Below, one piece after another: positions 21,065-60,171 of a stretch of DNA of 64,000 nt. The first letter of the stretch is position 1. Each line of letters opens with the position of its first letter. The position numbers and the translations under genes are program-made. Below the pieces are notes generated by a model. The model did no database searches. It had not been told where the DNA came from and saw only the letters and a list, made by a program, of their open reading frames with translations. Where the stretch lies: contig OZ242262.1 in assembly GCA_965207145.1 (NCBI GenBank), positions 1,864,827 to 1,928,826 on the forward strand, read 5' to 3'. The DNA is from Dehalococcoidia bacterium (GTDB lineage: Bacteria; Chloroflexota; Dehalococcoidia; Lucifugimonadales; UBA2962).

Positions 21065-21077
21065 AGGAGTCCCATCA

Positions 21078-22124: not shown

Positions 22125-22215
22125 GATCTCCCCTCCACGCTCACCGTGGTGGGAGGAACCGGCCGGATTCGGAGAACGGGAATCGAGAGAGTACGGGTCT
22201 AGGGAGATTGACCAG

Positions 22216-23262: not shown

Positions 23263-23819
23263 ACCCCGGGCCGCGCGGAGTAGCCGGAGCGTGCATCGCG
23301 GCCGGAAGTCCATGTCGGTGGCCCAGGCTGCGTGTCCCTCGCGGTCAGGCTGAACAGCTCACCTCTGCACAGAGTACAGAGGGGTCCGATTGCGAAATGC
23401 CGTGGTCAGACAGGGGACGACGTCCCGTACCTGGGTAAGCCGTAAACAGCATCTTCGGAGGTCAGGGCTGGTTTATCCTGCTTGCCAGTAAACAGGGGAA
23501 AGCCAAACATCTGGCTCCAATGGGAAAGCCTTCATTCAACATGCCTACTCGAGTACGTGAGGCCTGCTGGCAAGCAAAGTTGAGACACTTGAGGCAGGCG
23601 AACCTCGGCGGAAATGAATGCGCGCTCGATGTGGGGGCCACGGAGTCAAGTTGAACTGTCGGCGGCCCGGTTGCGCCGGTATTAGGTAGAAGTGACGGAG
23701 TGACTCCTTGGCCAGTGCGGGAGTACCTGAAGTGGGAGGAGATGCGATTCTAGTCCGGAGCGTATCCCGCCCAGCGACAGGTCGAAATTGCGAGTCTTAA
23801 CCAAACTCGGGAGAAATTC

Positions 23820-24578
23820 ATGCCTGGGAAACTGGACAGTAAGGTAAGCATCATCACCGGAGCCAGCTCAGGCATAGGGCGGTGTACTGCCCTCCTCTTT
23901 GCAGGGGAAGGTGCGAAGGTCATCGTCGCCGACGTCAACGAGCGAGGCGGCGAGGAGACTGTCGCGCTCATAGACGAGTCCGGAGGAGACGCTCTTTTCG
24001 TCCAGACCGATGTCTCCCAGCCCTCTCAGGTCCAGGAAATGGTCCAGCGCGCGATAGATTGCTACGGCAAGGTGGACCTGCTAATCAATGTTGCCGGCAG
24101 GCAGGTACAGACTCCTCCCCTGGTCGACGTTACAGAAGAGGAGTGGGACTTGGTGATGGATATCAACGTCAAGGGTATTTTCCTTTGCTGCAAGTACGCG
24201 ATTCCCCGCATGCTCGAAGCGGGAGGAGGAGCCATCGTAAACGTGGCCTCCATAAATGCGCTGCGAGGCTCGACGTTTTCGGCTCCCTATTCCGTGAGCA
24301 AGGCTGGCGTGGTGCAGTTGACAAGGACCGCCAGCAGCCAGTATGCGACGGATGGAATCCGTTCCAACTGCGTACTCCCGGGCCTCATCGACACCCCCGG
24401 CTCTCAGGCCGTGGAAGGCGCAGCCGGCATATTCGATGAGTACGTGTCAGGGATTCCTCTAGGACGGGCCGGCCAGCCCGAGGATGTCGCCAAGCTCATC
24501 CTCTATCTCGCCTCTGATGATGCAGCCTTCGTAACCGGCTCCGCATACGTTATCGATGGTGGAGACGACGTTCGATGA
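23820..24578 (+). CDS. SDR-family oxidoreductase
   Basis: ITGASSGIGR, NVAG, YSVSKAG catalytic YxxxK. Confidence 0.9.
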   Translation: MPGKLDSKVSIITGASSGIGRCTALLFAGEGAKVIVADVNERGGEETVALIDESGGDALFVQTDVSQPSQVQEMVQRAIDCYGKVDLLINVAGRQVQTPPLVDVTEEEWDLVMDINVKGIFLCCKYAIPRMLEAGGGAIVNVASINALRGSTFSAPYSVSKAGVVQLTRTASSQYATDGIRSNCVLPGLIDTPGSQAVEGAAGIFDEYVSGIPLGRAGQPEDVAKLILYLASDDAAFVTGSAYVIDGGDDVR

Positions 24579-24596: not shown

Positions 24597-25412
24597 TCAA
24601 TAGGGGTACTCAGGGTGACCCTTACCCTGCGTACCCTCACCGGCCTCGGGCGCGGAGGCCACTGTAGCTTCCCCAGCCGCTTCGACCGCTGTTGCGCTCT
24701 GTTGCTCTGAAGGTCCGGTGCTGGATTCGCCAGCGTCGTCCGAGTCCTGATCCCGGCTTGACTCGAGTCCGGAATCTCCGCCTCCGCTCACTTCTGACAC
24801 CACCCGTCGCATCTGCTCTTCCGCCCACCGCTTAATCTCGTCCAGCGAGGGGGGTGATATGTAGAACACCTGTATGTCGCCGGGAAACTGCACCCGGTGG
24901 TCTTCGCTGAGGATACACAGTCCCGCCTCATCATCCCCTAGGGTCTTGTCTATTGCGGTGGCCATGTGTGAATACCTGGCCTTCATGGCGTCGTCGAGGG
25001 AGTCTCTGGCTATCCTGGCGACCCTCTCGCTGGCCAGTCCCATCGACAGGCATAGTCTCCAATCGGAGGCCTCAAGGAACGCCTCCTGGTGGTCGGTTGG
25101 CTCAAGTGTCGCGGTAGACTGGCACAGGACATTTACGAAGGCGTGCCCGTGGGGGTTGAGGCTTTCCACCGTACGCAGCCCCTCCTCACCCGGCTTGAAC
25201 ACGGACTCGTGGTATACGTGCGTTACCTTGCTAAGGGTTCGTTCAAGACTCTCCACCTGCTGACGCACCTCGTCCCAGTAGCGGTTGAGCATCTGCACAA
25301 GGTCGTCTGGAATACCAGGGCCCGCCAGCAACGTGGGTACCAGGTAAATCTTGCGGCCGGACCTAAAGTTCTCTGCTTTCGGTCTCGGAATTTCCGTGAT
25401 TCGCTGGGTCAT
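24597..25412 (-). CDS. hypothetical protein with acidic low-complexity tail, translationally close to fdhA
   Basis: 271-aa ORF starting 6 nt downstream of the fdhA stop. No motif recognised. It is not FdhD-like, as it has no Cys-loop. Confidence 0.5.
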   Translation of the reverse strand: MTQRITEIPRPKAENFRSGRKIYLVPTLLAGPGIPDDLVQMLNRYWDEVRQQVESLERTLSKVTHVYHESVFKPGEEGLRTVESLNPHGHAFVNVLCQSTATLEPTDHQEAFLEASDWRLCLSMGLASERVARIARDSLDDAMKARYSHMATAIDKTLGDDEAGLCILSEDHRVQFPGDIQVFYISPPSLDEIKRWAEEQMRRVVSEVSGGGDSGLESSRDQDSDDAGESSTGPSEQQSATAVEAAGEATVASAPEAGEGTQGKGHPEYPY

Positions 25413-25418
25413 TTCGTG

Positions 25419-28166
25419 TCAGCCGTCCGCAATCTCCACCCTGACGGCGCAGACCTTGAACTCCGGTATTTTGGAATCCGGGTCCAGAGCTGAGTTGGTG
25501 AGGAAGTTGGCGGCCGACTCCTTCAGCTTCGTAAAGGGCACGAATACCTGTCCCTCCTCCATCTTTTCGTCAAATATCACACGCGCCTCTAAAGATCCTC
25601 TACGCGATTTCAACCGTGCCCAGACACCCTCCTCCAGGCCGTAGCGTTCCCCGTCCCGTTCGTTCATCGAAACGGTCACCTCGGGCGCGCGGGCCATGAG
25701 GGCGGATGCCCTACGCGTGATGGTACCGCCGTGCCAGTGGTACAGGATGCGGCCGGTGTTAAGGATCAGGGGGAAGCGTTTCGTGGGCATTTCCTCCGCC
25801 GCTGGACCCTGGTCGAAGGCGACGAACCTCGCTGGCTCGCCGTGCGGAAACTCATCCGCGTAAAGGTAGCGGGTGCCGGGGTGTTCGGGGGTAGTGCAGG
25901 GCCATTGCACCCCTCCCTCGCGCTCCAGTCGGTCGTAGTCGATGCCGCTGAACATCGGGACCAACGCGGCCATCTCATCCCATATCTGCGAGGGGTGTGA
26001 AAAAGAAAACTGGCCATCGAGTTCAAGCCCCCGTCGCTTGGCTACGCGCTTTGCAAGATCGCATACGATCTCCCAATCCGGCCTGCTGTCACCAACCGGC
26101 TTTACCGCCTTGCGAACCCGCTGTACCCGGCGCTCGCTGTTGGTGAACGTTCCGTCCTTTTCGGCAAAGGAGGTGGCCGGTAGCACCACGTCGGCTATCT
26201 CAGCGGTCTCGTTCATGAAGATGTCCTGCACGACCAAGAACTCGAGGCTCTCAAAGGCCCTCTGGGCATGGGTCAGGTCGGGTTCCGACAACAGGGGATT
26301 CTCCCCGGTCACGTACATGGCCTTTATTCCGCCGGTAACCATCTCGCCGGTCATCTCGGTGATCACGAGACCGCCTTTCTCAGGCAAGGGGTGTCCGCCC
26401 CACGCCTGTTGGAAGCGGGCGAATTGGTCCGACTCTACTTTCTGGTAACCCGGGAATGAATCGGGAAGGCAGCCGGAGTCTCCGCAGCCCTGTACGTTGT
26501 TCTGGCCCCTAAGGGGCGAGACGCCTGAACCCGGTCTACCCAGCTGTCCCGTTACCAGGGCGAGGTTGAGCAGGCTGTGCACATTGGGGGTGCCGTTCGT
26601 GTGCTGAGTGATGCCCATACCCCAGATGAGGCAGGAACCAGAGAACGGCGGCGAAGCGTATGTGCGCGCCGCTTCGGCCACATCTTCGGCTGGCACCCCG
26701 GTGATTCTCTCGGCAAACGATGCGCTGTAGCGCCCGATAACGGCGCGCCACTCCTCGAAGCCCTCGGTCCTGGCACGGATGAATTCCTCATTGGCCAGGC
26801 CCTCCTCCAATATCACGTTGGCCATGGCGTTGAACAGCGCCACGTCGGTACCCGGTCTCGGCCTGAGCCACAGGTCGGCGTAGTCGCACATTCCAATGCG
26901 CCTGGGATTGATTACGATCAGCTTGGCGCCGCGTTCGACCACAGCCCGCCGCATGCGAGCTGCGGCAACCGGATGGTTGGAGTCGGCGTCCGAGCCGGCG
27001 ATCATCAGGCAGCCGGCCTCCTCGTAGTCGACGTATGAATTGGACGTGGCCCCGCTGCCCAGCGCGATCTGCATCGCCGCCACTGAGGGCGCATGACACA
27101 GGCGAGTGCAATGGTCAATGTTATTGGACTTCATCACGAGCCGGGCGAACTTCTGCTGGACGTAGCCGTCCTCGTTAGTGGCCTTGGCAGAGCAAAGGGT
27201 GCCGAACTCCTCACCGCTGTAGCGAGCCAGCCTGTCGGAGACGGTGTCCAGTGCCTCGTCCCAGCTCACCGGCCGAAGCACGCCGTCCTTTCGAACCAGC
27301 GGCTCGGTCAGGCGACTCTTGTCGTGTACGAACGTGTACCCGAACCGTCCCTTGACGCAGAGCATACCCAGGCTTGACCGGTTGTCCGGGTCATCCAACA
27401 TCTCAACTATGCTGCCTTCGCCATTAATCCTGGCTTTAATGCCGCAGCCGACCCCGCAGTAGGGGCAGGTGGTGTTGATGGTTCTGGCGACATTGGAGAC
27501 CGCCTGTTTGGTGCGGATGGCTCCGGTAGGGCAAACGGAAAGACACTGGCCGCAAGTTGTGCATACCGAGTCCGCAAGGTTACGGTCCATGAAAGTGCCG
27601 ATTCGGCTGGATGCGGCGCCGGTTCCAAGGAAGTCGATGGCGCCTATGAACTGATGGCTGTCCTGGCAGGCACGGGTGCAGCGTCCGCAGAGGATGCAGT
27701 CCTGCATAGCTATGTCGAATACCGGGTTGGATGTATCCGCCATATCCCTTGGACGGCCCGACCATCGCGAGGAAGCGATGCCATGGTGCTCGGCGGCGAC
27801 GGTCAACTCGCGGTGGTCGACCATATCCGGCGCGCCGTTCTCCGAAGGGGACTGCGGGACGCAGACCGTGTCCGACTCCGGAAACATGGCCATGGTCAGC
27901 TCTATCACGCCGGAGCGGATGCGACGCAGGCCCGGTGTATCCGTTCGAATCCTCATCCCGTTGGCTGCCGGAAGGGAGCAGGAGGCCGGATAGCCGCCCA
28001 CACCATCCACCTGCACCAGGCAGGTGCGGCAGGCCCCGATCGGCTTCATGTCAGGATCTTTACACAACTGGGACAGATAGGTGCCGGAGAGATTGACGGC
28101 ATCCAGTACCGAGGCCCCGTGGCCCACGACGACCTTCCGTCCGTCTATCGACACTTCCATGCTCAT
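25419..28166 (-). CDS. fdhA: formate dehydrogenase alpha subunit, NAD-linked FdsA/FdhA type, Cys active site
   Basis: N-terminal 2Fe-2S and 4Fe-4S Cys clusters plus a molybdopterin oxidoreductase body. NIDHCTRLCHAPSVAAM aligns to the FdhF CARVUHGPSVAG site with Cys in place of Sec. Confidence 0.9.
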   Translation of the reverse strand: MSMEVSIDGRKVVVGHGASVLDAVNLSGTYLSQLCKDPDMKPIGACRTCLVQVDGVGGYPASCSLPAANGMRIRTDTPGLRRIRSGVIELTMAMFPESDTVCVPQSPSENGAPDMVDHRELTVAAEHHGIASSRWSGRPRDMADTSNPVFDIAMQDCILCGRCTRACQDSHQFIGAIDFLGTGAASSRIGTFMDRNLADSVCTTCGQCLSVCPTGAIRTKQAVSNVARTINTTCPYCGVGCGIKARINGEGSIVEMLDDPDNRSSLGMLCVKGRFGYTFVHDKSRLTEPLVRKDGVLRPVSWDEALDTVSDRLARYSGEEFGTLCSAKATNEDGYVQQKFARLVMKSNNIDHCTRLCHAPSVAAMQIALGSGATSNSYVDYEEAGCLMIAGSDADSNHPVAAARMRRAVVERGAKLIVINPRRIGMCDYADLWLRPRPGTDVALFNAMANVILEEGLANEEFIRARTEGFEEWRAVIGRYSASFAERITGVPAEDVAEAARTYASPPFSGSCLIWGMGITQHTNGTPNVHSLLNLALVTGQLGRPGSGVSPLRGQNNVQGCGDSGCLPDSFPGYQKVESDQFARFQQAWGGHPLPEKGGLVITEMTGEMVTGGIKAMYVTGENPLLSEPDLTHAQRAFESLEFLVVQDIFMNETAEIADVVLPATSFAEKDGTFTNSERRVQRVRKAVKPVGDSRPDWEIVCDLAKRVAKRRGLELDGQFSFSHPSQIWDEMAALVPMFSGIDYDRLEREGGVQWPCTTPEHPGTRYLYADEFPHGEPARFVAFDQGPAAEEMPTKRFPLILNTGRILYHWHGGTITRRASALMARAPEVTVSMNERDGERYGLEEGVWARLKSRRGSLEARVIFDEKMEEGQVFVPFTKLKESAANFLTNSALDPDSKIPEFKVCAVRVEIADG

Positions 28167-28181
28167 CTCTGCGCGTCCGGG

Positions 28182-28409
28182 CTACCCACTGGACGGTCTA
28201 TCCTCACTACGGCGTCCGGTGCCCTTGCCGACGCGACGTCTCGGTCTGGTCGGCTGCGACCAGGCGACGCCCAGCGCGGCTCCAATTCCTACCCCTGTTG
28301 CCACACCAATGGCCACCGAGTCGAGGAAAGCGCCGGTTGCAACACCTGCGGCGATGCCGATGGCCACTCCTGCGCACAGCCGGCTGTTGCTACCGATGTT
28401 CATGTTCAC
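28182..28409 (-). CDS. small glycine-zipper membrane protein (hypothetical)
   Basis: 75 aa with GxxxG-rich sequence GVAIGIAAGVATGAF...AIGVATGVGIGAALG and a basic tail. It sits between the NuoF-like gene and fdhA. Confidence 0.4.
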   Translation of the reverse strand: MNMNIGSNSRLCAGVAIGIAAGVATGAFLDSVAIGVATGVGIGAALGVAWSQPTRPRRRVGKGTGRRSEDRPSSG

Positions 28410-28478
28410 AGTCCATGCACTAGTCGCATAAATCCGGGAGCGCGATCAGGCCGTCTCACCAATCCTATAACACGAACA

Positions 28479-30074
28479 TCACTTCTCTTGAGGGATGCCT
28501 AACTCCCTCCCAAAGAAGTGAAGCGTGCTGGTTACGGGACCGCCTGCGGCCTGTCCTAGGCCGCACAGGGAGGCAGAGCCGACCACTTCGGCCAGATACG
28601 TCAACTCCTCTACATCTGCCTTGGAGGCACCGCGGCGGGCCAGCCGGTCTATCACCTCGACAATTCGGGGCGTACCCTCGCGGCAAGGGGTGCACTTGCC
28701 GCAAGATTCGTCGGCGTTGTAGGCGGCGAGCGCTCGCATCGCGTCCAGAATTCCTACGGATTCGTCGATGGCGACTAGCCCGCCGGCGCCTAGGATGACT
28801 CCTGACTCGTGCAGCATACCTGGCATGATCTTGATATCAAGTGAAACTGGCGACAGCAGCCCACTCGACGGCCCACCGACGCCAAGCGCGGTCAGCACAC
28901 TTTCGTCTCGCATGCCTCCTCCAATGCCCTCGACCACAGTAGAGAGGGGAGTCCCGAAAGGAGTCTCCACCAGGCCGGGCCGGGCCACCGCGCCCGACAG
29001 GCTAAGTACCTTGGTTCCGGTGGCGTTCTCAGCGCCGAGTGCGCTGAACGCAGCTGGCCCCGCGGTCAGGATGAAGGGCAGGTTCGAAAGGGTCTCTGCG
29101 TTGTTGATCACGGTGGGTCGGGCGTTCAGGCCCGCCTCGGTGGGGAAGGGAGGACGCAGCCTGGGCTCGCGGCGTCGGCCTTCCATGGTGTTCAGCAGCG
29201 TCGTCTCTTCACCGCACACGTAGCCTCCGGCCCCGCGCCGTATCGTAGCCCGTACTGACCAGCCCGAGCCAAGTACATCCTCTCCTATCAGGCCAAGTGC
29301 CTCGGCGTCGGCGAGCGCCCTTTCGATTCGACGGGCTGAAAGATCGGCTTCTGCGTTGATGTACAGGTATATGACACTGGCCTGGGTCGCGTAGGCGGCA
29401 ATCAGTGCTCCCTCGACGATACGGTGGGGGACCCCTTCCATCAGGTGTCGGTCCTTGAACAGCCCTGGCTCACCCTCTTCTGAGTTAACGACCAGGTAGC
29501 GAGATCCCTCCGCCGCCGCCCGCGCGGCCTCCCACTTGAGAGCCGCCGGGTAATACGCGCCGCCGCGGCCCCGGAGGCCAGACTCCTTAACGGTCGCAAT
29601 TGTTGCTTCCGGCGAATCCGACAATGCGGCGGCCAAGCCGCGGTAGCCGCCAGACTGCAGGTACTCGTCGATGCCCTCCGCATCGATGTCGCCGCACCCG
29701 TTCAGGACCACGCGGACCTGGCCTTCGATGAAATCTGAGACGTCATCCGCATAGCGCAGAGGCGTGCCGCCTCCCTCGATGATCGTGGATACGCGGATGG
29801 CCATGTCCACGTCGACCCTGGGCAAGAGTACGGTCTTCCCATCCGGAGCGGTGATGATCACTTGGGGGCCGGCGTAGCAGGCGCCATCGCATCCGGTAGC
29901 AACGAGTCTGGCGTTGTCGAGCAGATCCTCCTCGAAGGCCCTCAGGACATCCTCCGCCCCCAGTGCAATCGAGCAGTGGCCCGCCCGCACCGCGACACGG
30001 ATCTTTCCGGCACTACTCTCCAGTCTTGTGTTCGCCCCCTCGCGCAGGCGCTCGTACGCTGGTAGGGCAGTCAC
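28479..30074 (-). CDS. NuoF-like NAD(H)/FMN/4Fe-4S flavoprotein (FdsB-type FDH beta subunit)
   Basis: GRGGAYYPAALKW, NSEEGEPGLFKDR, ESCGKCTPCREG. The proposed GTG start at 30074 overlaps the NuoE-like TGA (GTGA). Confidence 0.9.
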   Translation of the reverse strand: MTALPAYERLREGANTRLESSAGKIRVAVRAGHCSIALGAEDVLRAFEEDLLDNARLVATGCDGACYAGPQVIITAPDGKTVLLPRVDVDMAIRVSTIIEGGGTPLRYADDVSDFIEGQVRVVLNGCGDIDAEGIDEYLQSGGYRGLAAALSDSPEATIATVKESGLRGRGGAYYPAALKWEAARAAAEGSRYLVVNSEEGEPGLFKDRHLMEGVPHRIVEGALIAAYATQASVIYLYINAEADLSARRIERALADAEALGLIGEDVLGSGWSVRATIRRGAGGYVCGEETTLLNTMEGRRREPRLRPPFPTEAGLNARPTVINNAETLSNLPFILTAGPAAFSALGAENATGTKVLSLSGAVARPGLVETPFGTPLSTVVEGIGGGMRDESVLTALGVGGPSSGLLSPVSLDIKIMPGMLHESGVILGAGGLVAIDESVGILDAMRALAAYNADESCGKCTPCREGTPRIVEVIDRLARRGASKADVEELTYLAEVVGSASLCGLGQAAGGPVTSTLHFFGRELGIPQEK

Positions 30075-30574
30075 GCCGTCACCTTCTCGCCTAGGCGATC
30101 CACGACTTTGGCAGCCCGCTCCGGGGTCGCTCGACCGAGCCATCGTCCGTCCAGCTGCAGGGCCGGCGCTACACCGCACAGGAATCCGCAGGCTGTGGTC
30201 TCAAGGGTCACCGTCTTAACCGGGCCAACCTCCGCCGTTTCTCCCGGCTCGACGCCCAATCGGGCCTTAACGGCGTTCAGTATCGAGTCCGCCCCCGAAA
30301 TCCGGCAGCTAAGGCCCGTGCAGACCCGGATCATGTGCGAGCCGGGTTTGTCGATGCGCAACTCCGAGTAGCTGGTAGCAGCACCGTATACCTCGCTGGC
30401 AGGTATCCCAAGATGCCAGGACACGACTTCCATCGCCCAATCGGGCAAGTAGCCGAAGCGATGCTGAAGATAATGCAGTGCAGGCAGCAGCATCCCGCGC
30501 TCCCTGGGGAATCGATCCCGCAGATCGGCGCGTAGTCCCTTGCGCTCTCCGTCCCTTTGCCTGTCTCGTGCCAC
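30071..30574 (-). CDS. NuoE-like 2Fe-2S thioredoxin-like subunit (FdsG-type FDH gamma subunit)
   Basis: LLPALHYLQHRFGYLP, VCTGLSC ... TACGFLCGVAPA cluster ligands. Confidence 0.9.
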   Translation of the reverse strand: MARDRQRDGERKGLRADLRDRFPRERGMLLPALHYLQHRFGYLPDWAMEVVSWHLGIPASEVYGAATSYSELRIDKPGSHMIRVCTGLSCRISGADSILNAVKARLGVEPGETAEVGPVKTVTLETTACGFLCGVAPALQLDGRWLGRATPERAAKVVDRLGEKVTA

Positions 30575-30582
30575 CCGGGGTG

Positions 30583-32493
30583 CTATGCCTTGGCGACCGG
30601 CAGTCCCAGCTTCAGCAGGCCCAGGTCGGCCAGTTTGGAATCAGGGATGGTGCCGTCAGGCTCCCAGCCCCTAGCCTGGTAGTAGGCAGCTATCATCCGA
30701 TCGAGGTCCCGCCTCGAGAGCCTGACGCCCTTGACAGGTCCGTCGCTGAGTTCCTCCTCTAGGATTCTTCGGGGAAGGGAATCGTCCGCACGGGACCAGC
30801 CCTCTCGGAGGTTGAACAGCTTTTTCAGGTTGTTGATGCGCTCGCCGGCAATGCGAAGCTCTTCTGCCGTAACGTCCCATCCAGTCACGCACGACATCAC
30901 GTCTGCCGACTCGGCGTAGAAGTCCGCGAAGGCGCGGCGCAGGAATTTGCACCAAACAAGTGAATCCATCACCGCCGATCGGTCCTCACCTTCGGCGACG
31001 ATGTGGCCCATCTGAGAATCTGCATTCAGCCGGTCCACCCGGGACGAGAAGTCAGCCTCGTAGGCCGAGGATCGGTTGTGGCACGCGCCCCTGGTGCTGA
31101 CCGCCAATGCCAATGCCATGGTCTTGAGGGAACGGGGTTCGTACCCGGGCATCTCAAGTCCCTTTACATGCATTGCCCACGCTTCCGAGCCTCTACCGAT
31201 CTGATTCGCCGCCCTGCGACTGCCATCCGCCAGCAGGTCGCCTAGGCCCCGCCGGTGCGCAATGTCCTGCAGGATCGTCGGCAATGCCCCTTCGTCTCCG
31301 AACCGCAGGGCCGCTCCGTTTTTGGCCCTTGTGCCATCCAACAGGCCTCTCGATGCGGCTTCGGCGGCCCAGGCTATGGTCGCGCCGGCACTTATGGTGT
31401 CCATGCCCAGCTCGTCGCAGAGAACGGACGCGCGTAGAACTGCGTTAGGATCTGAGATGCCCATCAAGGAGCCCAGGGCGAAAGCCGATTCGTATTCCAT
31501 TCGGCCTTCTACCTTGGTTCCCTGGTCCCTCGTGGTCATCACATGTTCACAGCCTATGGTGCAGTTGGCACAGTGGGCGGTTCGAACTAGATGATCGGTC
31601 TTGAATCGCTCCCCCCCGATCTTCGCTGCGCCCTCAAAGGTTGAGGCCTGGAAGTTTCGGGTGGGCAGGACGCCCAAACGGCTGAATACCTCGACATTCG
31701 CCATGGTGCCTAGGGTCCTGTACTTTTCCGTCGCCTGTCCCAGGCTACGGCGGCTTAATTCAACTCCAATGCGGTTTAGAGCGACCGGATGCGCGACCTT
31801 GACTTTCGCCGATCCCTTTACCGCTATGGCCTTGAGGCCTTTGGACCCCATGACAGCACCGACACCGGTCCGGCCCGCCTGCCTGCCTCCTTCACTACTT
31901 ATGCTGGCGAACCTGACAAGCGACTCGCCGGCAGGTCCTATGCAGGCCACGCGAAAGCCCCTTCCCAGGCGCTCCTTCACCAGTCGCTGCGTATCCGTAG
32001 TCGTCCTTCCGGCAAGGTCGTGGGCGTCAAGGAGGTCTACTTTTCCGTCCTCGATTCGCAGAAGGGTAGGGCGCTCGCGGGCGCCCCTTATGACCAGAGC
32101 GTCAAAGGCGCAGCGCTTGAGTTCGGTGGCCATAAAGCTCGACGACAGCGAGTCGCCTATTAGGCCCGTGAGCGGCGACTTCGCCAGGACCGCGAACTTG
32201 CTCGAGGTCGTCAGCCGGGTTCCCACCAGGGGGCTGGTCACGAAGATCAGGGGGTTCAGGGAGCCCAGGGGCTCCGCCTTCTCGGGGCAGTGCCGGTACA
32301 GCAGCCAAGCACCAAGTCCCGTTCCGCCGATGAAAGCCCGCAAGATCTCATCGGGAATGAGCTCGTACGTCGCCTCTCCCGTATCGAGGTCCACCAGGAG
32401 AGAGCGGCCGTGATAGCCGTAAACCTCTTCGTCTTTGATCAGACCGGTTCCCCTTAAGCCAAGGTCATTCATACCGCGCCGTGCCGTTCGCAA
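30583..32493 (-). CDS. aor: aldehyde:ferredoxin oxidoreductase family (tungstopterin AOR)
   Basis: GYHGRSLLVDLDTGE N-terminus, GGTGLGAWLLY, and CANCTIGC 4Fe-4S motif. 636 aa. Confidence 0.9.
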   Translation of the reverse strand: MRTARRGMNDLGLRGTGLIKDEEVYGYHGRSLLVDLDTGEATYELIPDEILRAFIGGTGLGAWLLYRHCPEKAEPLGSLNPLIFVTSPLVGTRLTTSSKFAVLAKSPLTGLIGDSLSSSFMATELKRCAFDALVIRGARERPTLLRIEDGKVDLLDAHDLAGRTTTDTQRLVKERLGRGFRVACIGPAGESLVRFASISSEGGRQAGRTGVGAVMGSKGLKAIAVKGSAKVKVAHPVALNRIGVELSRRSLGQATEKYRTLGTMANVEVFSRLGVLPTRNFQASTFEGAAKIGGERFKTDHLVRTAHCANCTIGCEHVMTTRDQGTKVEGRMEYESAFALGSLMGISDPNAVLRASVLCDELGMDTISAGATIAWAAEAASRGLLDGTRAKNGAALRFGDEGALPTILQDIAHRRGLGDLLADGSRRAANQIGRGSEAWAMHVKGLEMPGYEPRSLKTMALALAVSTRGACHNRSSAYEADFSSRVDRLNADSQMGHIVAEGEDRSAVMDSLVWCKFLRRAFADFYAESADVMSCVTGWDVTAEELRIAGERINNLKKLFNLREGWSRADDSLPRRILEEELSDGPVKGVRLSRRDLDRMIAAYYQARGWEPDGTIPDSKLADLGLLKLGLPVAKA

Positions 32494-32506
32494 GGCGATT
32501 CCAACT

Positions 32507-32851
32507 CTAGCCGCCTGCCTGGCTGGAAAACAGGAGAATACGGTCTCCAGACATTACCTGCCTGGTCTCGGAGGACATGAAGCAGGTGCCGTTGAGGTTC
32601 AATACGTAGCTTGAGAGTAGTCCTCCATTTGGGTCTATCACCTCGCCCAAGAGCGCCGGTTCTACTTTGGACAACCGCTCGGCAACTTCGGCGGCTGAAG
32701 CCTTGCCTGGCACGCTCAAGTCCACACTGCTTCGGCCGGCCAGCAGCCTGGCGTTACCGAACAGTTCAATTGTCACCCTTCTCTCAGGATCGCCCACTGA
32801 TCTCCAACTCGTCCCCGAAGTCTCTCCCCGCGCGACGCTCACGCTGTCCAT
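32507..32851 (-). CDS. MoaD/ThiS-family ubiquitin-like sulfur carrier (C-terminal GG)
   Basis: Small beta-grasp-like ORF ending ...LLFSSQAGG, 13 nt upstream of aor. The start may be internal. Confidence 0.65.
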   Translation of the reverse strand: MDSVSVARGETSGTSWRSVGDPERRVTIELFGNARLLAGRSSVDLSVPGKASAAEVAERLSKVEPALLGEVIDPNGGLLSSYVLNLNGTCFMSSETRQVMSGDRILLFSSQAGG

Positions 32852-32943
32852 TCAGTGGCGCCGGTTCAACGTGCGCTGTTCGCGCTATCGGCGAACGGAG
32901 CCTGATAGGCCGATAGTGCCGATGTTTTGTGTTTTGTATAGCT

Positions 32944-33612
32944 CTATCCTAAGGGATCGCTCGCCGTCTCTGCCGCGCGTGCCATCGCGATCTCAAGGTC
33001 TGCCGGAGTGTTGACGTTGAAGAAACTCCAAAGCCCCGGATCGAGTGCCTCAACCTTGAGCTGCGGCAGGTACTTTACCCTGACCATTTCGAAGAACGCC
33101 GAGATCTTTAGCTCTCCGGCGTCTACATTCTTCCTGATAGGTCCTATGCAATCCTTGGAGTAGAGGGCGTGGATAGGTTCAGGTCTCCCGTCCAGTAGGG
33201 GGACGACGGCATCATAACTGCTCCTCGCAGATGCCATTTTGGCGAGTAACGCCTGGTTCAGGAAGGGCATGTCGCAGGCGACGACGAGCGCCCAGGCGCG
33301 CGATGCGGCGGTAAGTCCCGTAAGGATTCCCCCGAGCGATCCGGAGTTGGGGTACAGGTCACTGACGACTCTCGCCTGTGTCGGAAGTGGAAGCGCGCGG
33401 GCCTGTTCCTCCTCGGCGACGACTACGACAGTTTCCGAGGATATCGGCTCGATGGCGGAGATGACTCGGGCTATAAGCGGCACGCCGCCGACGAGCTCGA
33501 GAGCCTTGTTTCGCCCCAGGCGGCGGCTGCGCCCGCCGGCAAGGACGACGGCGGTGATTGACCGGAAGTCAATGGAGCAGTTCGCCGCGGTGCCACCGGC
33601 CTCCAGTACCAT
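32944..33612 (-). CDS. mobA: molybdenum cofactor guanylyltransferase
   Basis: AVVLAGGRSRRLGRNKALE motif and NTP_transf_3-like body. Confidence 0.85.
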   Translation of the reverse strand: MVLEAGGTAANCSIDFRSITAVVLAGGRSRRLGRNKALELVGGVPLIARVISAIEPISSETVVVVAEEEQARALPLPTQARVVSDLYPNSGSLGGILTGLTAASRAWALVVACDMPFLNQALLAKMASARSSYDAVVPLLDGRPEPIHALYSKDCIGPIRKNVDAGELKISAFFEMVRVKYLPQLKVEALDPGLWSFFNVNTPADLEIAMARAAETASDPLG

Positions 33613-33815
33613 TGACCAAGATTACCACGCGGCTCACGTTCGGGCATCGTCTGGTCTCAGTGAAGGGGGCAGAGCCCCCGCTCGGTCAGTTGTGGGAGGT
33701 TGCAGGCAGGATTGCTACCGGTCCCACACTGGATGTCGAGAGTGCGGGGAAGGGCGGCCATCAGCGTAATGACACTCAGGCAAGGCCACCTGATGGGATT
33801 GGCAGTGACCGCCTG

Positions 33816-35795
33816 TCAATTGCTCTTCGACACTTGGGCGACCACTTTCCCGGTTTCCCGGGTATCGTAGCCGTCGAGTTCGTCTACACGTTCCTTGAAC
33901 GCGCGTGATCGGATAGCTGCTAGGGCAGTTTTCACCGGCTCTGCATCGAGCAACGCCGATGGCGTCACGAGATCGTAGCGTTCCCTGACCAGGGGCACGA
34001 AGTCGAGATCGAAAGCACGGGCGGCAGACTGTATGCCAAGCCCAACGTCTGCTCGCCCGCTATTTACTGCGGCCGCGACGGCTAGGTGAGTGTATTCCTC
34101 GCGCCCGTATCCTTCTATTGATTGGGGTGAGAGACGCGCCGTCAGGAGTTGATGGTCCAGCAGAACGCGGGTTCCGGAGCCCCGCTGTCGGTTTACGAAC
34201 GTAGCCCGCCGATTTGCTATGTCGGACAGGGAGGCTATGCCGAGTGGGTTACCCCGGGCAACGATCAGCCCCTGGATCCTGTGCACCAGAGTGACAACCG
34301 TCACGTCCCTTGAGACGTGGCGTCGAACATAGCTGAGATTGTATTCCCCGGTGTCGGGGTCGAGCAGGTGTGTGCCGACCATGTGGGCCTCGCCTCGCTC
34401 AAGGGCCACCAGACCACCGAGGGAGCCAACATTCGCCGACGCCAGACGTGAGCCGCCGGTTTCACCGAGCAAGTTGGCCAGGACGTCCAGAGTCAGATCG
34501 TGGCTTCCGGTAACAACGATCGTGTCTTCAATCTCGTTCAGAGACCGAAGCAACTCCACCCTTACTTTCGAACCGGCCTCCAACCCCTCGGAAAAACGTG
34601 GAATCAGGGCGATGCCGTCGGCCTCGACCAGCGACATTATTACCCCCGCTCCCCGCCGTATGGGTGTGGCCACCAGACTGCCGTCAACACGCCCCAGGCG
34701 GACTCTCAAGAACTCGTCCTCGCCTGCAGGGGAGAAGATCTTCCTGGTAACCACGGCCTCCGCCGTCGGGCCCCGGGTCAGGGCAGTCAGCTCATGGAAA
34801 TGAGAAGCTCTTGTTGAGATGCCGAGGCATCGCTCTATGGTCGATTTCAAAAAGAGTTCGGATGTAACTAGCGCAGAGACCGGATAGCCGGGAATACCCA
34901 GCACCGGCCGTCCCTTCACGACCCCGAGCACGACCGGGTGCCCGGGACGAATTGCGACTCCGTGGACGGCCAGGTCACCCAGAGCTTGGACGGCGGGGGC
35001 TGTGTAGTCCTCCGAGCCGGCCGAAGAGCCCGCGTTGATGACAACAATTTCGTTCTCGTCGGCAGCCTTAAGGATCGATTCTTCGATCAGGCTGGGCTGG
35101 TCTTTGACTGGATCCATACGGATCGGAATTCCGCCCCATTCAAGCACCTGGGCAGCCAGCATGATCGAGTTGAACTCCACCACCTGTCCTGGCTCGGCGT
35201 TGACGCCGGGCTCAACCAGTTCCGTGCCAGTGGGGATGATCGCGACTGATGGCCTTTTGCGCACCTTGATTGTCGCCACTCCGGCCGATGCGCAGGCCCC
35301 TAGGTCTTGCGGCCTCATTCGGTGTCCTTCCGGCAGTACCAATTCGGTCGCTGCGATGTCCTCGCCAATTGGTCGGACGTGCTGGTAGGGTGCCACCGGC
35401 TCCCGAATCTCGATGTGCATACCGCCGAGGTCCTGCACGTGTTCGATCATCACGACGGCGTCAAAGCCATCGGGCATTGGGTCGCCAGTATCCAGCCAGG
35501 CGGCCTGTTCCCCGATCCTCAGTTGCAGCGGCGATGTCTCCGTTGCGCCGACCGTTTCGGCCGATCGCACGGCGACCCCGTCCATCGCGGCGGCATCGTA
35601 ATGGGGAGAAGATTTCAGAGCCCAAATGGGTTCGGCTGTAACTCGGCCCGCAGCCTCCTCCAGGGCCACGGTCTCCGGTCCAGTGATCAGGTGTGCGCCG
35701 GACCTGTAGAGCGCTTGATCGAAGCGCCGCAATGCCTCATCCAGAGGCACGTCCTGCAGGTAATAGCGGCGGCCGACCCTTCTGCCGTGGTTCAT
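33816..35795 (-). CDS. moeA: MoeA molybdopterin molybdo/tungsto-transferase fused to a C-terminal PBP-like (molybdate/tungstate-binding-like) domain
   Basis: MoeA N/central/C regions, then TGSHDLTLDVLANLL...GGLVALERGEAHMVGTHLLD...FVNRQRGSGTR, typical of the PBP_like fusion. The start is taken at ATG 35795, 1 nt after the upstream TGA. Confidence 0.85.
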   Translation of the reverse strand: MNHGRRVGRRYYLQDVPLDEALRRFDQALYRSGAHLITGPETVALEEAAGRVTAEPIWALKSSPHYDAAAMDGVAVRSAETVGATETSPLQLRIGEQAAWLDTGDPMPDGFDAVVMIEHVQDLGGMHIEIREPVAPYQHVRPIGEDIAATELVLPEGHRMRPQDLGACASAGVATIKVRKRPSVAIIPTGTELVEPGVNAEPGQVVEFNSIMLAAQVLEWGGIPIRMDPVKDQPSLIEESILKAADENEIVVINAGSSAGSEDYTAPAVQALGDLAVHGVAIRPGHPVVLGVVKGRPVLGIPGYPVSALVTSELFLKSTIERCLGISTRASHFHELTALTRGPTAEAVVTRKIFSPAGEDEFLRVRLGRVDGSLVATPIRRGAGVIMSLVEADGIALIPRFSEGLEAGSKVRVELLRSLNEIEDTIVVTGSHDLTLDVLANLLGETGGSRLASANVGSLGGLVALERGEAHMVGTHLLDPDTGEYNLSYVRRHVSRDVTVVTLVHRIQGLIVARGNPLGIASLSDIANRRATFVNRQRGSGTRVLLDHQLLTARLSPQSIEGYGREEYTHLAVAAAVNSGRADVGLGIQSAARAFDLDFVPLVRERYDLVTPSALLDAEPVKTALAAIRSRAFKERVDELDGYDTRETGKVVAQVSKSN

Positions 35796-35796
35796 C

Positions 35797-37071
35797 TCAA
35801 AATGTGGTGACGTGTACCGTGTCGCCCGCGTACAGACCGCCGGAGTCAAGCGATACCGATGCCAGTCCATCGGCACGCACAAGAGTGAAAATCAGATTAG
35901 ACTTGCCGAAGATTGGCTCGGCCACCAGACCGCCAGGGCCTGTCTCCAACCTTACTGGGAAGAAATCCTGGCGGCCGGGCGCGGACGGGACGTTTGAAGC
36001 CAGGGTTGCCGGGACGCCCCGGCTAGTCGCAGGTTCGCTTGCGCCCATGAGGGAGCGGATGACCGGGCGGACGATGAGGTTGAAGACTACCATCGCAGAC
36101 ACTGGGTTGCCGGGCAGGCCGAAGACGGGCGTGTCGCCTACCAGACCGGCTATCGTAGGCTTGCCGGGCTTAATCGATATGCCATGGACCAGCACTCCCG
36201 GCCCGCCGAGTTCGGCCAGCACCCTCGCGGTCATGTCCCGGCTTCCGACTGAGCTACCCGCCGAGAACACCACGATGTCTCCGCAGTCCACCGCCTCGCG
36301 TGCGGCCCCCCTCTGAGCTTCCAGGTCGTCGGGGAAGATCCCAAGAGGCACCGGCGCGCCCCCGGCGCGCTCCACCAGGGCCGCCACCGTGTGCGTGTTG
36401 ATGTCGCGCACCTGCCCGGGGCCGGGCTCGTCGGCCGGTTCCACCAGCTCATCGCCGGTGGACACTATTGCGACCCTAGGCCTGCGGGCAACCTCGACGC
36501 TGGTCACTCCGACCGCAAGCAGAGCACCCAGATCTTGGGGTCGCATGGTATGGCCTTCCGGCACCACGTCCTGACCGGCCCGGACGTCCTCGTCGGACTG
36601 GACGACGTTCTCCCCGGGAGCAACCGAGCGAACGACCTCTATGGTGGCCTCGCCCACAGAGTGAGTGTGCTCGATCATTACGACCGCGTCGGCTGCTCCG
36701 GCAAGCATTCCGCCGGTGTATGCCACCGCGACCTGTCCCGGGCCCAAGGTGATCTGCGGTGCCCTCCCCATGGGAACCTCGCCGACAACTTCAAGATATG
36801 CGGGCATGCTGTCACTTGCCCCGAATGTGTCGGCAGCCCGGACCGAGTATCCGTCCATTGCGGACCTCGCGAATGCCGGCAACCCGGCAGGGGACACGCA
36901 ACGCTTCGTGGTAACCCGGTCGAGCGCGCTTGAGACGAGGACCGTCTCTGAGCCTGTCCGTACACCACCGATGCGCTCTAGAAGGACAGCGATCGCCTCA
37001 TCCGGGGGCAGAAGGTTGAACAGTTCGGGCATGGGGATTGTCAAATAGCCGTAGCTTAGTCTTCTCCGCAT
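35797..37071 (-). CDS. moeA: MoeA molybdopterin molybdotransferase (stand-alone copy)
   Basis: SAMDGYSVRAADT, IVSTGDELVEP, VVFSAGSSVGSRD, KPGKPT. Confidence 0.9.
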   Translation of the reverse strand: MRRRLSYGYLTIPMPELFNLLPPDEAIAVLLERIGGVRTGSETVLVSSALDRVTTKRCVSPAGLPAFARSAMDGYSVRAADTFGASDSMPAYLEVVGEVPMGRAPQITLGPGQVAVAYTGGMLAGAADAVVMIEHTHSVGEATIEVVRSVAPGENVVQSDEDVRAGQDVVPEGHTMRPQDLGALLAVGVTSVEVARRPRVAIVSTGDELVEPADEPGPGQVRDINTHTVAALVERAGGAPVPLGIFPDDLEAQRGAAREAVDCGDIVVFSAGSSVGSRDMTARVLAELGGPGVLVHGISIKPGKPTIAGLVGDTPVFGLPGNPVSAMVVFNLIVRPVIRSLMGASEPATSRGVPATLASNVPSAPGRQDFFPVRLETGPGGLVAEPIFGKSNLIFTLVRADGLASVSLDSGGLYAGDTVHVTTF

Positions 37072-37158
37072 CCGCTAGCGGGAAAGGGCTACGTTAACCT
37101 TGTCCCTTACTAGGACGCCAGCCCACTGTCATATCGGCCGCCATGGGCCGATCGAATA

Positions 37159-38862
37159 CTAGAGGCCTACGATGGCCCCGTCCTCGTCGACGTCCAGGGA
37201 GCGCGGTCTAGTCGGCAATCCAGGCATCGTGACTATGTTCCCCGCGATCGGGTATATGAACCCTGCGCCCACGGACGCCCGTACGTCGCTGACCTCAAAG
37301 GTGTAGCCAGAGGGACGGCCCTTGAGCGCCGCCCTGTGGCTGATCGAAAGATGCGTCTTGGCCATGCATACGGGCAAGTCTTCCCATCCCAGCTCGCGGA
37401 AGCGCCGCAGTTGCCTTCGTGCCGCCAGGCTCCAGGTTGCGTCAGCGGCGTTGTAGACCCTGCGAGCCAATGCAAGGACCTTGTCCTCCAGCGAGTCCGA
37501 CAGTTCGTATGCGTAGTCGATCACCGGGTCGCCCGTTGGTGAGGAGTCGTCGGTCGCAGCGATCAGCGCCTCTGCCAGGTCCCTGCACCCCGAACCCCCT
37601 TCGGTGTAGGGGCTGCTCTCGACAGTCGCGGCTGCGCCGGCGCGCTCGCTGCCCCGCTCGGCGATACGCAGCTCCTCGGGCGTGTCCGTGGGAAAGCGGT
37701 TCAGGGCGACAACCACGGGCAGTCCGAAAGAACGTATGACCCCGATAAGGTGGGTCAAGTTGTCTAAGCCCGCCTCAACTGCCGACGGATTGGGAGGATC
37801 CAGATCCCTGGCCTTTACCCCGCCGTGGTACTTTAGCGCCTTTATTGTGGCCACGATCACCGCACCCTGCGGATGCAGGCCTGAGGTGCGTGCCTTGATG
37901 TGCATGAACTTCTCGAATCCCAGGTCAGCGCCAAAGCCGGCCTCAGTGAGCACGTAGTCCGCATAGGAAAGCGCAAGACGGTCGCCGACCACAGAGCTGC
38001 ACCCATGGGCGATGTTGCCGAACGGACCCGTATGGACGATGACCGGCTGACCTTCCGTAGTCTGGACGAGATTGGGCAAGAGGGCGTGGCGAAGTAGCGA
38101 CATCATCGAGCCAACCGCGCCAACGTCGGCTGCGGTTACCGCCCGGCCGTCGTCGGCGAAACCGATCACGATCCGGCTAAGCCTTGCCCGGAGATCCTCA
38201 AGATCCGTGCTTAGTGCGAGTATCGCCATCACCTCGGAGGCGGTGACAATGTCGAAGCCCGTCTCCCTGACCGGAGCGTTGTTTACGCCACCAAGCCCCG
38301 TGGCAATTTGCCGTAGCGATCGCTCCTCCATGTCGGACACGCGTCGAAGGGTTATCCCTGCGGGCGACATGTCTGCCACCTGCCCTCGCTGTACGGCGTT
38401 GTCTGTAAGTGCGGCTAGCAGGTTGTGGGCTGAACCGACTGCATGAGCGTCACCGGTAAAGTGGACGTTCACTTCGTCTTCGGGCTCGATTCGAGACTTA
38501 CCGCCCCCGGTGCCACCACCCTTGATGCCGAAGATTGGTCCGAGGGAAGGCTCGCGCAGCGTGGTGACGACGTTGACACCCAGCTGCCCCATGCCCTGCG
38601 CAAGGCCCACGGCGGTGGTGGTCTTGCCTTCCCCGGCGGGCGTTGGAGTCATGCCGGTTATTACGATCAATTTGCCGCGTCGGCCGCCCTGTCCTATGGC
38701 GTCCAAGGGGATCTTTGCCTTGTGGTGGCCGTAGGGGATTAGAAGCTTGGGATCGACCCCCAGGGCCTTGGCGATCTCGGTTATTGGTCGCACGTTGGAA
38801 TTAACCCCTATATGTCGCGTGCCATCCGTCTTTAGCGTCGAAACGCGGCACGATTCTAGCAT
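37159..38862 (-). CDS. fhs: formate--tetrahydrofolate ligase
   Basis: TPTPAGEGKTTTAVGL P-loop and full-length FTHFS architecture. The start codon is possibly internal. Confidence 0.95.
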   Translation of the reverse strand: MLESCRVSTLKTDGTRHIGVNSNVRPITEIAKALGVDPKLLIPYGHHKAKIPLDAIGQGGRRGKLIVITGMTPTPAGEGKTTTAVGLAQGMGQLGVNVVTTLREPSLGPIFGIKGGGTGGGKSRIEPEDEVNVHFTGDAHAVGSAHNLLAALTDNAVQRGQVADMSPAGITLRRVSDMEERSLRQIATGLGGVNNAPVRETGFDIVTASEVMAILALSTDLEDLRARLSRIVIGFADDGRAVTAADVGAVGSMMSLLRHALLPNLVQTTEGQPVIVHTGPFGNIAHGCSSVVGDRLALSYADYVLTEAGFGADLGFEKFMHIKARTSGLHPQGAVIVATIKALKYHGGVKARDLDPPNPSAVEAGLDNLTHLIGVIRSFGLPVVVALNRFPTDTPEELRIAERGSERAGAAATVESSPYTEGGSGCRDLAEALIAATDDSSPTGDPVIDYAYELSDSLEDKVLALARRVYNAADATWSLAARRQLRRFRELGWEDLPVCMAKTHLSISHRAALKGRPSGYTFEVSDVRASVGAGFIYPIAGNIVTMPGLPTRPRSLDVDEDGAIVGL

Positions 38863-59949: not shown

Positions 59950-60171
59950 ATGAGTCTCACGGAGAGCTGGGTGAACATTGCGGAAGTGGCAGCGCACCTA
60001 CAAGTTACGAAGGATTCGATATATCGCTGGGTCGATTCGAAGGGTTTTCCGGCTCACCGCGCCGGGCGACTATTGAGATTCAAGCTATCAGAAGTAGACA
60101 CATGGGTGCGGTCAGGTAGTGATGAGCACACTCCTTTAGAGGGTCATAACAGAAGCGCAGATGACAACTAA
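59950..60171 (+). CDS. small excisionase/MerR-type HTH DNA-binding protein (HTH_17-like)
   Basis: VNIAEVAAHLQVTKDSIYRWVDSKGFPAHRAGRLLRFKLSEVDTWV. The start is taken at the internal ATG 59950. It overlaps the next gene by 11 nt. Confidence 0.75.
   Translation: MSLTESWVNIAEVAAHLQVTKDSIYRWVDSKGFPAHRAGRLLRFKLSEVDTWVRSGSDEHTPLEGHNRSADDN

Follow-up and report, generated by a model that had tools for sequence, protein, structure and literature searches.

Members of the aldehyde oxidoreductase (AOR) family are regarded as obligately tungsten-dependent enzymes. In the M type, a large subunit works with ferredoxin as electron partner, as in P. furiosus AOR (1aor) and in the tungsten oxidoreductase (WOR) of B. 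massiliensis, a single-subunit ferredoxin-linked enzyme that operates in an obligate aerobe (PMC9424855). The AORs known to be wired to NAD+, AorABC and WorABCSL, pass electrons through a polyferredoxin, AorA or WorS (PMC6365974, PMC12318220), and WorS acts as the polyferredoxin adaptor between WorL and WorA (PMC12318220). The formate dehydrogenases (FDHs) of the FdsGBA and FoDH1 type carry NuoE- and NuoF-like subunits of their own. Here we describe a locus in a 64,000-nt stretch of a Dehalococcoidia genome (contig OZ242262.1; the whole stretch is called the window below) in which a gene for an AOR large subunit (aor) stands between genes for the maturation of pterin cofactors and the genes of an NAD-linked FDH (nuoE-like, nuoF-like and fdhA).

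We hypothesize, as the reading that we judge probable, that the locus encodes two separate pterin enzymes of known kinds, held together with their cofactor supply in a conserved supra-operon of marine Dehalococcoidia/SAR202. Every component comes from a known family, and it is the conserved arrangement that is noteworthy. An earlier reading made from the letters alone (the sequence-only reading) had described eleven genes on one strand at 24597-38862, and all eleven are confirmed on the minus strand; from upstream to downstream they are:

37159..38862, minus strand: fhs, formate--tetrahydrofolate ligase, 567 aa (Pfam FTHFS, E 1.6e-211; NCBIfam NF010030, 673 bits against a cutoff of 652)
35797..37071, minus strand: moeA, molybdopterin metal-insertion protein, 424 aa (Pfam MoeA_N, MoCF_biosynth, MoeA_C)
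33816..35795, minus strand: moeA-PBP, MoeA with a periplasmic-binding-protein-like (PBP_like) domain, 659 aa (Pfam MoeA_N, MoCF_biosynth, MoeA_C; PBP_like, E 1.2e-70)
32944..33612, minus strand: mobA-like molybdenum cofactor guanylyltransferase, 222 aa (Pfam NTP_transf_3, E 2.6e-37)
32507..32851, minus strand: MoaD/ThiS/SAMP-like protein with C-terminal Gly-Gly, 114 aa (Gly-Gly terminus and profile matches)
30583..32472, minus strand: aor, tungstopterin-type AOR large subunit, 629 aa from the ATG (Pfam AFOR_N and AFOR_C)
30071..30574, minus strand: nuoE/fdsG-like [2Fe-2S] subunit, 167 aa (Pfam 2Fe-2S_thioredx, E 1.1e-32)
28479..30074, minus strand: nuoF/fdsB-like flavin mononucleotide (FMN), NAD(H) and [4Fe-4S] subunit, 531 aa, GTG start (Pfam Complex1_51K, SLBB, NADH_4Fe-4S)
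28182..28409, minus strand: small Gly/Ala/Val-rich membrane protein, 75 aa (codon-position substitutions, hydropathy)
25419..28166, minus strand: fdhA, metal-dependent FDH catalytic subunit, 915 aa (TIGR01591, 756 bits against a cutoff of 666)
24597..25412, minus strand: conserved hypothetical protein with a disordered acidic tail, 271 aa (no Pfam, NCBIfam or PDB match)

The formate dehydrogenase module and the aldehyde oxidoreductase

FdhA exceeds the curated FDH-alpha model TIGR01591, has a NuoG-like N-terminus, and finds its closest solved relatives in the tungsten FDH of M. extorquens (7vw6_A, E 1.6e-203) and in R. capsulatus FdsA (6tg9_A). Cys357-His358 and Arg553 are conserved in 100% of 69 sequences, the active-site residue being cysteine, not selenocysteine. 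The conserved cysteines account for one [2Fe-2S] and three [4Fe-4S] clusters, and Pfam recognizes a ferredoxin-like 2x[4Fe-4S] domain in the N-terminus. The motif of the His-ligated [4Fe-4S] cluster, HxxxCxxCx5C, which R. capsulatus FdsA and HydA contain, is absent from FdhA (residues about 90-150) and from all 50 relatives examined, loci from L086-L165 included, AOR-linked or not; because it is missing, this FDH subfamily appears to be one Fe-S cluster short of the structural model enzymes. The idea that this cluster was lost as an adaptation of a docking surface for the AOR was rejected, as the motif is also missing in AOR-less relatives.

The cysteines C85, C90, C129 and C133 of the NuoE-like protein are 100% conserved among orthologues, and its PDB matches include HydC, NfnC and FdsG. 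In the NuoF-like protein the N3-type cysteines C458, C461, C464 and C504 are likewise 100% conserved and the FMN/NADH region is kept. Its best PDB matches are the B subunits of bifurcating Bfu enzymes (408 bits, versus 255-291 bits for FdsB); the alignment to two of these, 9bov_B and 8oh5_B, ends at their residue 508 of 584, where the C-terminal 2x[4Fe-4S] domain begins. A C-terminal ferredoxin domain is found in none of 77 NuoF-like orthologues, in which the last N3-type cysteine is followed by 22-37 aa that contain no cysteine. It is the C-terminal clusters of the B subunit that define bifurcating Bfu enzymes (Schut et al. 2022, PMC9304861); by the criteria of that study the absence of the domain makes the NuoF-like protein a non-bifurcating, FdsB-like NAD(H) module, and a bifurcating Bfu-type enzyme was rejected, the domain being missing from every orthologue.

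At residues 26-70 the NuoF-like protein has a thioredoxin-like domain with the pattern His/Gln-Cys...Cys-x3-Cys, present in 94% of orthologues, as in Stn/Nfn B subunits. This N-terminal cysteine triad was considered as an AOR-specific point of electron entry and set aside as specific evidence, for the AOR-less outgroup has the triad too.

FdhA and the NuoF- and NuoE-like proteins are together best read as an NAD+ formate dehydrogenase of the FdsGBA/FoDH1 type, an activity that is predicted from their sequences. In the nearest relatives without an AOR, nuoEF-fdhA occurs as the same module: its cofactor motifs agree with those of the window, the N-terminal cysteine triad is present and the His-ligated cluster is missing there too. 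The module therefore appears to be self-sufficient. Neither FdsC/FdhD nor FdsD was recognized in the cluster by Pfam or NCBIfam, the 271-aa and 75-aa proteins included, and their genes may lie elsewhere in the genome. The predicted enzyme would be soluble and would oxidize formate at a Cys-ligated tungsten or molybdenum bis-molybdopterin guanine dinucleotide (bis-MGD) site in FdhA, from which electrons would travel over the [4Fe-4S] and [2Fe-2S] clusters of FdhA to the [4Fe-4S] cluster and FMN of the NuoF-like subunit and on to NAD+, the NuoE-like subunit contributing an accessory [2Fe-2S] cluster.

The AOR is full-length by its Pfam matches (AFOR_N, E 1e-67, profile positions 2-198 of 199; AFOR_C, E 1.9e-122, positions 16-385 of 385). 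Among solved structures it is closest to P. furiosus AOR (1aor; E 4.8e-114, 385 bits) and to A. mobile WorL (9mqx_D; E 1.8e-111, 376 bits); P. furiosus formaldehyde oxidoreductase (FOR) matches at 332 bits (1b25_A, E 4e-98) and AorB at 298 bits. Residue alignment to 1aor yields equivalents of the cluster cysteines C288, C291, C295 and C494 and of the catalytic residues Glu313 and His448, together with the conserved pterin-binding motifs DxxGxD and DSxxxC, and the [4Fe-4S] cysteine ligands are 100% conserved in 81 orthologues. Glu332 and His383, which in the P. furiosus dimer form a bridging metal site, are not conserved, the window AOR having Arg and Pro at these positions, and Glu156 of WorL, which bridges to WorS and WorA, is replaced by Gly.

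The sequence-only reading had seen no AorA- or AorC-like partners and had named the NuoEF pair as the only flavoprotein adjoining aor. For the window both observations are borne out: the polyferredoxin motif CxxCxxCxxxC occurs in its 64 kb only in FdhA itself and in a GlcF-like protein, and no AorC-like flavin adenine dinucleotide (FAD) protein or FAD-pyridine-nucleotide oxidoreductase is among the annotated neighbours. Nor did the 80 related loci yield a convincing polyferredoxin at distances of up to 10 kb from aor; the motif turned up there only in a contig-end segment of locus L020, taken to be a cut-off fdhA, and in an opposite-strand ORF of L082 with a single motif. By gene content, then, the AOR is assigned to the large-subunit-only M type of the Feng et al. 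2025 classification, and its electron acceptor is probably a soluble carrier. Such an enzyme would convert aldehydes, possibly including formaldehyde, to acids and would pass the electrons through its single [4Fe-4S] cluster to a carrier such as ferredoxin, encoded elsewhere. Its metal, like that of the FDH, may be tungsten or molybdenum.

Gene order and cofactor genes in related loci

Relatives were collected by a search with an AOR alignment, keeping one genome per species; of the 440 relatives obtained, the best 80 (AOR identity 62-97%), all of them Dehalococcoidia, SAR202 or Chloroflexota metagenome-assembled genomes (MAGs), were examined. Their gene order was mapped by tblastn, and genes were scored only where the contig was long enough. 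The order and orientation of mobA, the moaD-like gene, aor, nuoE, nuoF and fdhA are kept in 80/80 genome loci, with no exception where the contig suffices. The sequence-only reading had made its proposal depend on conservation of the aor-nuoEF-fdhA order in relatives, and the order is kept. In a reverse test, metagenome contigs were searched with the NuoF-like alignment: at a NuoF identity of at least 50%, aor lies upstream in 29/29 informative loci, and below 50% it is present in 9 loci and absent from 11, so that the arrangement is found in 38 of the 49 informative metagenome loci. The adjacency and orientation of aor and nuoE are kept both in the 80/80 genome loci and in 38/38 metagenome loci that contain an AOR.

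Recurring as it does in relatives, the arrangement is far from a chance one on the evidence of these alignments, and its strict synteny in both directions (80/80 genomes; 29/29 at or above 50% NuoF identity) argues for selection on co-location. In the loci compared, aor is associated with the FDH in a single large clade only, whereas in the sister group nuoEF-fdhA stands alone, the FdhA of the AOR-less metagenome group being at about 54-57% identity. Both AOR-less loci examined, L152 (7470-9575) and L142 (7326-9467), have nuoE and nuoF fused into one ORF of about 700 aa, much as in the fused beta subunit of M. extorquens FoDH1. The FoDH1 beta chain of 572 aa is itself matched by both the NuoE-like and the NuoF-like proteins of the window.

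Might this order be no more than an inheritance, the AOR and cofactor genes having landed upstream of an FDH operon in the ancestor of the clade without functional meaning? All loci do come from one class, Dehalococcoidia/Chloroflexota, and AOR-less sister operons exist, as such a history would have it. We nonetheless think it very unlikely: the six-gene core is unbroken in 118 loci across AOR identities of 54-97%, while the flanking fhs, moeA, 271-aa, MFS (major facilitator superfamily) and GFO genes have been shuffled or lost among relatives and the spacers within the core accept insertions. At the upstream end of the core, mobA lies directly upstream of the moaD-like gene and aor in 81/81 related loci. 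The outer genes are found in many related loci, not all, and this holds for fhs, both moeA genes and the 271-aa gene: fhs is upstream of the core in 41 related genome loci and has no copy within 10 kb in about half of the loci, moeA is present in 62, and the 271-aa gene follows fdhA in 46.

The junctions in the window are mostly short, and the lengths given by the sequence-only reading are all correct for the longest ORFs. The stop of moeA is separated by 1 nt from the ATG of moeA-PBP at 35795, the GTG start of nuoF lies over the nuoE stop in a 4-nt GTGA overlap, and fdhA and the 271-aa gene are 6 nt apart. The aor-nuoE junction measures 8 nt when counted to the nuoE GTG at 30574, a start that is upheld because NuoE residues 11-27 are conserved among orthologues. 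The one length that probably needs revision is the moaD-like/aor gap, which is 13 nt with the TTG start at 32493 (the longest ORF) and 34 nt with the ATG at 32472; the ATG is the more likely start because homologues are 613-629 aa long. Wider gaps separate moeA-PBP from mobA (203 nt), mobA from the moaD-like gene (92 nt), fhs from moeA (87 nt) and nuoF from fdhA (312 nt, containing the 75-aa ORF).

Among relatives the spacing between nuoE and nuoF never exceeds 113 nt (81/81 loci). The aor-nuoE spacer exceeds 350 nt in 34/82 loci, about 40% of relatives having extra genes there, and nuoF-fdhA is interrupted in 33/73. Across the numbered loci L001-L082 these two spacers are insertion hot spots, holding HicB-like antitoxins (18 loci), nucleotidyltransferase/HEPN pairs, PIN and RelE-like genes, cupins (9 loci) and DUF6232. 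In L011, three opposite-strand genes (5.4 kb) with signal-peptide-like N-termini stand between aor and nuoE. The aor-nuoE inserts were also considered as hidden ferredoxins, which was ruled out, the inserts being toxin-antitoxin-like, cupin or DUF6232 genes. Some MAGs have two copies of the block from mobA to nuoE or fdhA on different contigs (L033 and L071 in CAJWER01; L029 and L038 in CBDCFV01); the L033 and L071 copies differ in sequence and spacer lengths, and may be true paralogues or come from mixed strains.

The genes upstream of aor are consistent with a common supply of cofactor. The moeA-PBP product scores 742.8 bits against a cutoff of 534 for NF011068, and MobA models are the best NCBIfam matches of the mobA-like product, below their cutoffs. 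MobA makes the bis-MGD cofactor, which is needed by FdhA and not by the AOR; that mobA is interleaved with a moaD-like gene, of the kind that accompanies the AOR in Aromatoleum, fits a cofactor unit shared by the two enzymes. The 114-aa MoaD-like protein has no Pfam match and a weak NCBIfam match to SAMP1 (E 7.8e-6, below cutoff), and it ends in Gly-Gly in 82/82 orthologues. When the orthologue profile is compared with the PDB, the top seven matches are all MoaD, MoaD2 or SAMP1 (best 2m19_A, E 1.3e-4), and 1vjk is also matched, so that its homology to the MoaD/ThiS/SAMP beta-grasp sulfur carriers, small proteins of about 90-110 aa, has modest but consistent sequence support. The aor operon of Aromatoleum likewise carries the MoaD-like genes aorD and aorE (PMC6365974). 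We suggest that both MoeA paralogues, of which the fused one carries a PBP domain of oxyanion-binding-like type, would act with MobA and the MoaD-like protein to mature both cofactors, and that Fhs would connect formate to the folate one-carbon pool.

Electron acceptor, metabolic role and surrounding genes

The sequence-only reading had offered two interpretations side by side: that the AOR and the FDH share one NAD(H) diaphorase, or that they form a co-regulated unit for aldehyde and formate oxidation with its own pterin maturation genes and fhs. The second fits the evidence, and in particular the invariant order of the core, with co-regulation and co-transcription presumed. The first found no direct support; adjacency speaks for it, and it is countered by the lack of a polyferredoxin and of the Bfu clusters, by the AOR-less modules and by the interrupted spacer.

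In physical terms, a shared diaphorase would mean that the AOR docks on NuoE, on the N-terminal domain of NuoF or on the ferredoxin-like 2x[4Fe-4S] domain of FdhA with no WorS or AorA adaptor, which we regard as quite unlikely. The product of such coupling, to be rated no higher, would be a non-bifurcating, two-headed aldehyde-plus-formate:NAD+ oxidoreductase feeding one FMN/NAD+ site. Direct docking would agree with the invariance of aor-nuoE adjacency and orientation over all AOR-containing loci, with the 8-nt junction in the window, and with the failure to find ferredoxin, AorA or AorC genes nearby; AOR large subunits are known to be wired to NuoEF-type modules (WorABCSL, 9mqx) and to an NAD-reducing subunit (AorABC), and the N-terminal 2x[4Fe-4S] domain of FdhA is of the same kind as the polyferredoxin adaptors. 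Yet all solved multi-subunit AORs use a polyferredoxin adaptor, and none is present at the locus; nothing in NuoE, NuoF or FdhA sets AOR-linked relatives apart from those without an AOR; the WorL residue Glu156 is Gly here; and sister FDH operons occur without aor. Moreover, nuoE and nuoF are always tightly joined, whereas the aor-nuoE spacer is often interrupted (never by ferredoxin genes), once by genes on the opposite strand.

Several observations also weigh against two separate enzymes in a co-regulated unit. The adjacency of aor and nuoE is absolute over a wide range of divergence, with only 8 nt between them here, and this is tighter than shared cofactor needs require. The argument from the spacer, with that from L011, is weakened in turn by the fact that nuoF-fdhA is interrupted as often, although NuoF and FdhA certainly form a complex. 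A motif scan found no ferredoxin gene in the window or near aor in relatives. Matches in a scan for promoters and terminators were no more frequent than in shuffled sequence, and the limits of the operon could not be set; scans for a molybdenum or tungsten cofactor (Moco/Tuco) riboswitch or another Rfam element found none. With neither kind of signal found, co-regulation is presumed. The reading as two pterin enzymes with a joint cofactor supply nevertheless remains the one that we prefer.

On that preferred reading the metabolic link would run from aldehydes, perhaps formaldehyde, to formate and on to CO2 or formyl-tetrahydrofolate. A narrower version, which we consider unlikely, would make the locus a dedicated one-carbon module, in which the AOR is a formaldehyde oxidoreductase whose formate is either oxidized by the FDH to CO2 and NADH or activated by Fhs. 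The genes fhs, aor and fdh do lie together in one conserved block, the AOR is strongly related to P. furiosus FOR (1b25_A, E 4e-98), and formate is the sole metabolite that three of the cluster's enzymes have in common. On the other hand, the broad-spectrum AOR and WorL match the window AOR better (385 and 376 bits) than FOR does (332 bits), fhs is not within 10 kb in roughly half of the relatives, and substrate range cannot be read from sequence. The neighbouring genes also point to larger aldehydes. Beyond the end of the cluster, at 20330-24578 on the plus strand, are an HpcH/HpaI aldolase, two Zn-type alcohol dehydrogenases and a short-chain dehydrogenase/reductase (SDR), enzymes that can make aldehydes larger than formaldehyde; genes of the same kinds neighbour the locus in close relatives (dehydrogenases in L001 and L002, SDR in L001, aldolase in L002). 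It is plausible that these dehydrogenases, the SDR and the aldolase are sources of aldehyde substrates.

Upstream, the same-strand run goes on for two more genes, a GFO/IDH/MocA oxidoreductase (38905-39894) and an MFS transporter (39899-41245), and farther out, at 43501-47805 of the window, is a GlcDEF-like set of two FAD_binding_4/FAD-oxidase_C proteins and a CCG/4Fe-4S protein. Apart from FdhA, this CCG/4Fe-4S protein is the sole bearer of a ferredoxin motif in the window. Neither a tungstate transporter nor a ferredoxin is among the ORFs annotated in the window. The GC content dips at 50-54 kb and 60-64 kb (0.57 versus about 0.62), and lower-GC stretches carry a Mutator-family transposase and a homologue of DruA (Druantia anti-phage) at 55790-57034 and 60161-61405; they could be a mobile or defence island.

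The two remaining genes of the run have little visible connection with the enzymes. The 75-aa ORF occurs in no genomes but the closest three (L001, L003 and L004), and it is a real gene by its substitutions, most of which affect third codon positions (24 vs 8 and 30 vs 16); its product, with a Kyte-Doolittle maximum of 2.0 over 19 residues, is lineage-specific and probably not part of the enzyme system. The family of the 271-aa protein comprises 60 clusters and is confined to Chloroflexi. Its AlphaFold2 (AF2) model has an alpha/beta core with a predicted confidence (pLDDT) above 90 and found no PDB match by Foldseek. It was considered as the missing adaptor or as an analogue of FdhD or FdsD and rejected: it has no Fe-S motif and only two partly conserved cysteines, it matches no family or fold, and its distant family members adjoin genes for DnaJ and PAC2-domain proteins, not FDH. 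Nothing that we found ties it to the enzyme system.

Significance and comparison with known systems

In the deep ocean, SAR202/Dehalococcoidia are abundant and degrade recalcitrant organic matter, and the strict block of AOR, NAD-linked FDH, Fhs and pterin-cofactor genes suggests that the use of pterin enzymes to oxidize aldehydes and one-carbon compounds is a core trait of these bacteria. Seawater contains far less tungsten than molybdenum, which raises the questions of which metal these AOR-family enzymes use and which acceptor takes up their electrons in hosts that are largely aerobic. Were the AOR connected to NuoEF, this would add to the ways in which tungsten enzymes are known to reach NAD+, and a direct complex would be a fifth tungsten AOR architecture beside the M, N, BF and U types, widespread in SAR202/Dehalococcoidia, whose members are abundant in oxygenated, tungsten-poor seawater. 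If, as is more likely, it is not coupled, the cluster nonetheless gives expression and biochemical work a well-defined target. In the open-access literature, a limited corpus and not proof of newness, we found no description of an M-type AOR placed between pterin-cofactor genes and an FdsGBA-type FDH in SAR202/Dehalococcoidia.

Compared with the NAD+-wired AORs, the locus shares some parts and lacks others. Like A. aromaticum AorABC (8c0z; PMC6365974), it combines the gene of an AOR large subunit with MoaD-like maturation genes in one operon; unlike that NAD+-reducing AOR nanowire, it has in the window neither AorA (4x[4Fe-4S]) nor AorC (FAD), and AorB is a weaker relative of the window AOR (298 bits) than P. 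furiosus AOR is (385 bits). Like A. mobile WorABCSL (9mqx; PMC12318220), it encodes an AOR large subunit together with NuoE-like, NuoF-like and NuoG-N-terminal-like proteins, and WorL, WorB and WorC are significant PDB matches of the three window proteins. It differs from WorABCSL in having no WorS polyferredoxin and in a NuoF-like protein without the C-terminal 2x[4Fe-4S] domain required of BfuB; moreover, its NuoG-like portion forms the N-terminal end of a complete FDH catalytic subunit, whereas WorA is a protein of 247 aa with a docking helix.

The M-type enzymes P. furiosus AOR (1aor) and B. massiliensis WOR (PMC9424855), both ferredoxin-dependent, resemble the window AOR in consisting of the large subunit only, with full AFOR_N and AFOR_C. 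The likeness to P. furiosus AOR extends to the four cluster cysteines, to counterparts of Glu313 and His448 and to the pterin motifs, and stops at the dimer-bridging Glu332/His383, which are not kept. Unlike the M-type enzymes as described, the window aor is locked beside an NAD-linked FDH in every close relative.

That FDH corresponds to FdsGBA of R. capsulatus and C. necator (6tg9, 6vw7) and to M. extorquens FoDH1 (7vw6) in its alpha subunit, with NuoG-like N-terminus, bis-MGD site, Cys-His pair and Arg, in its NuoF-like FMN/[4Fe-4S] beta subunit without a C-terminal ferredoxin domain, and in its NuoE-like [2Fe-2S] gamma subunit. It differs from R. capsulatus FdsA in that the window FdhA has no His-ligated [4Fe-4S] cluster, from FdsB in that the NuoF-like protein keeps the N-terminal cysteine triad and scores higher against Bfu-type B subunits, and from the R. 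capsulatus fdsGBACD operon in that FdsC/FdhD and FdsD were not recognized in the window cluster. Above all, unlike FdsGBA and FoDH1, the module in the window has aor and the cofactor genes directly upstream.

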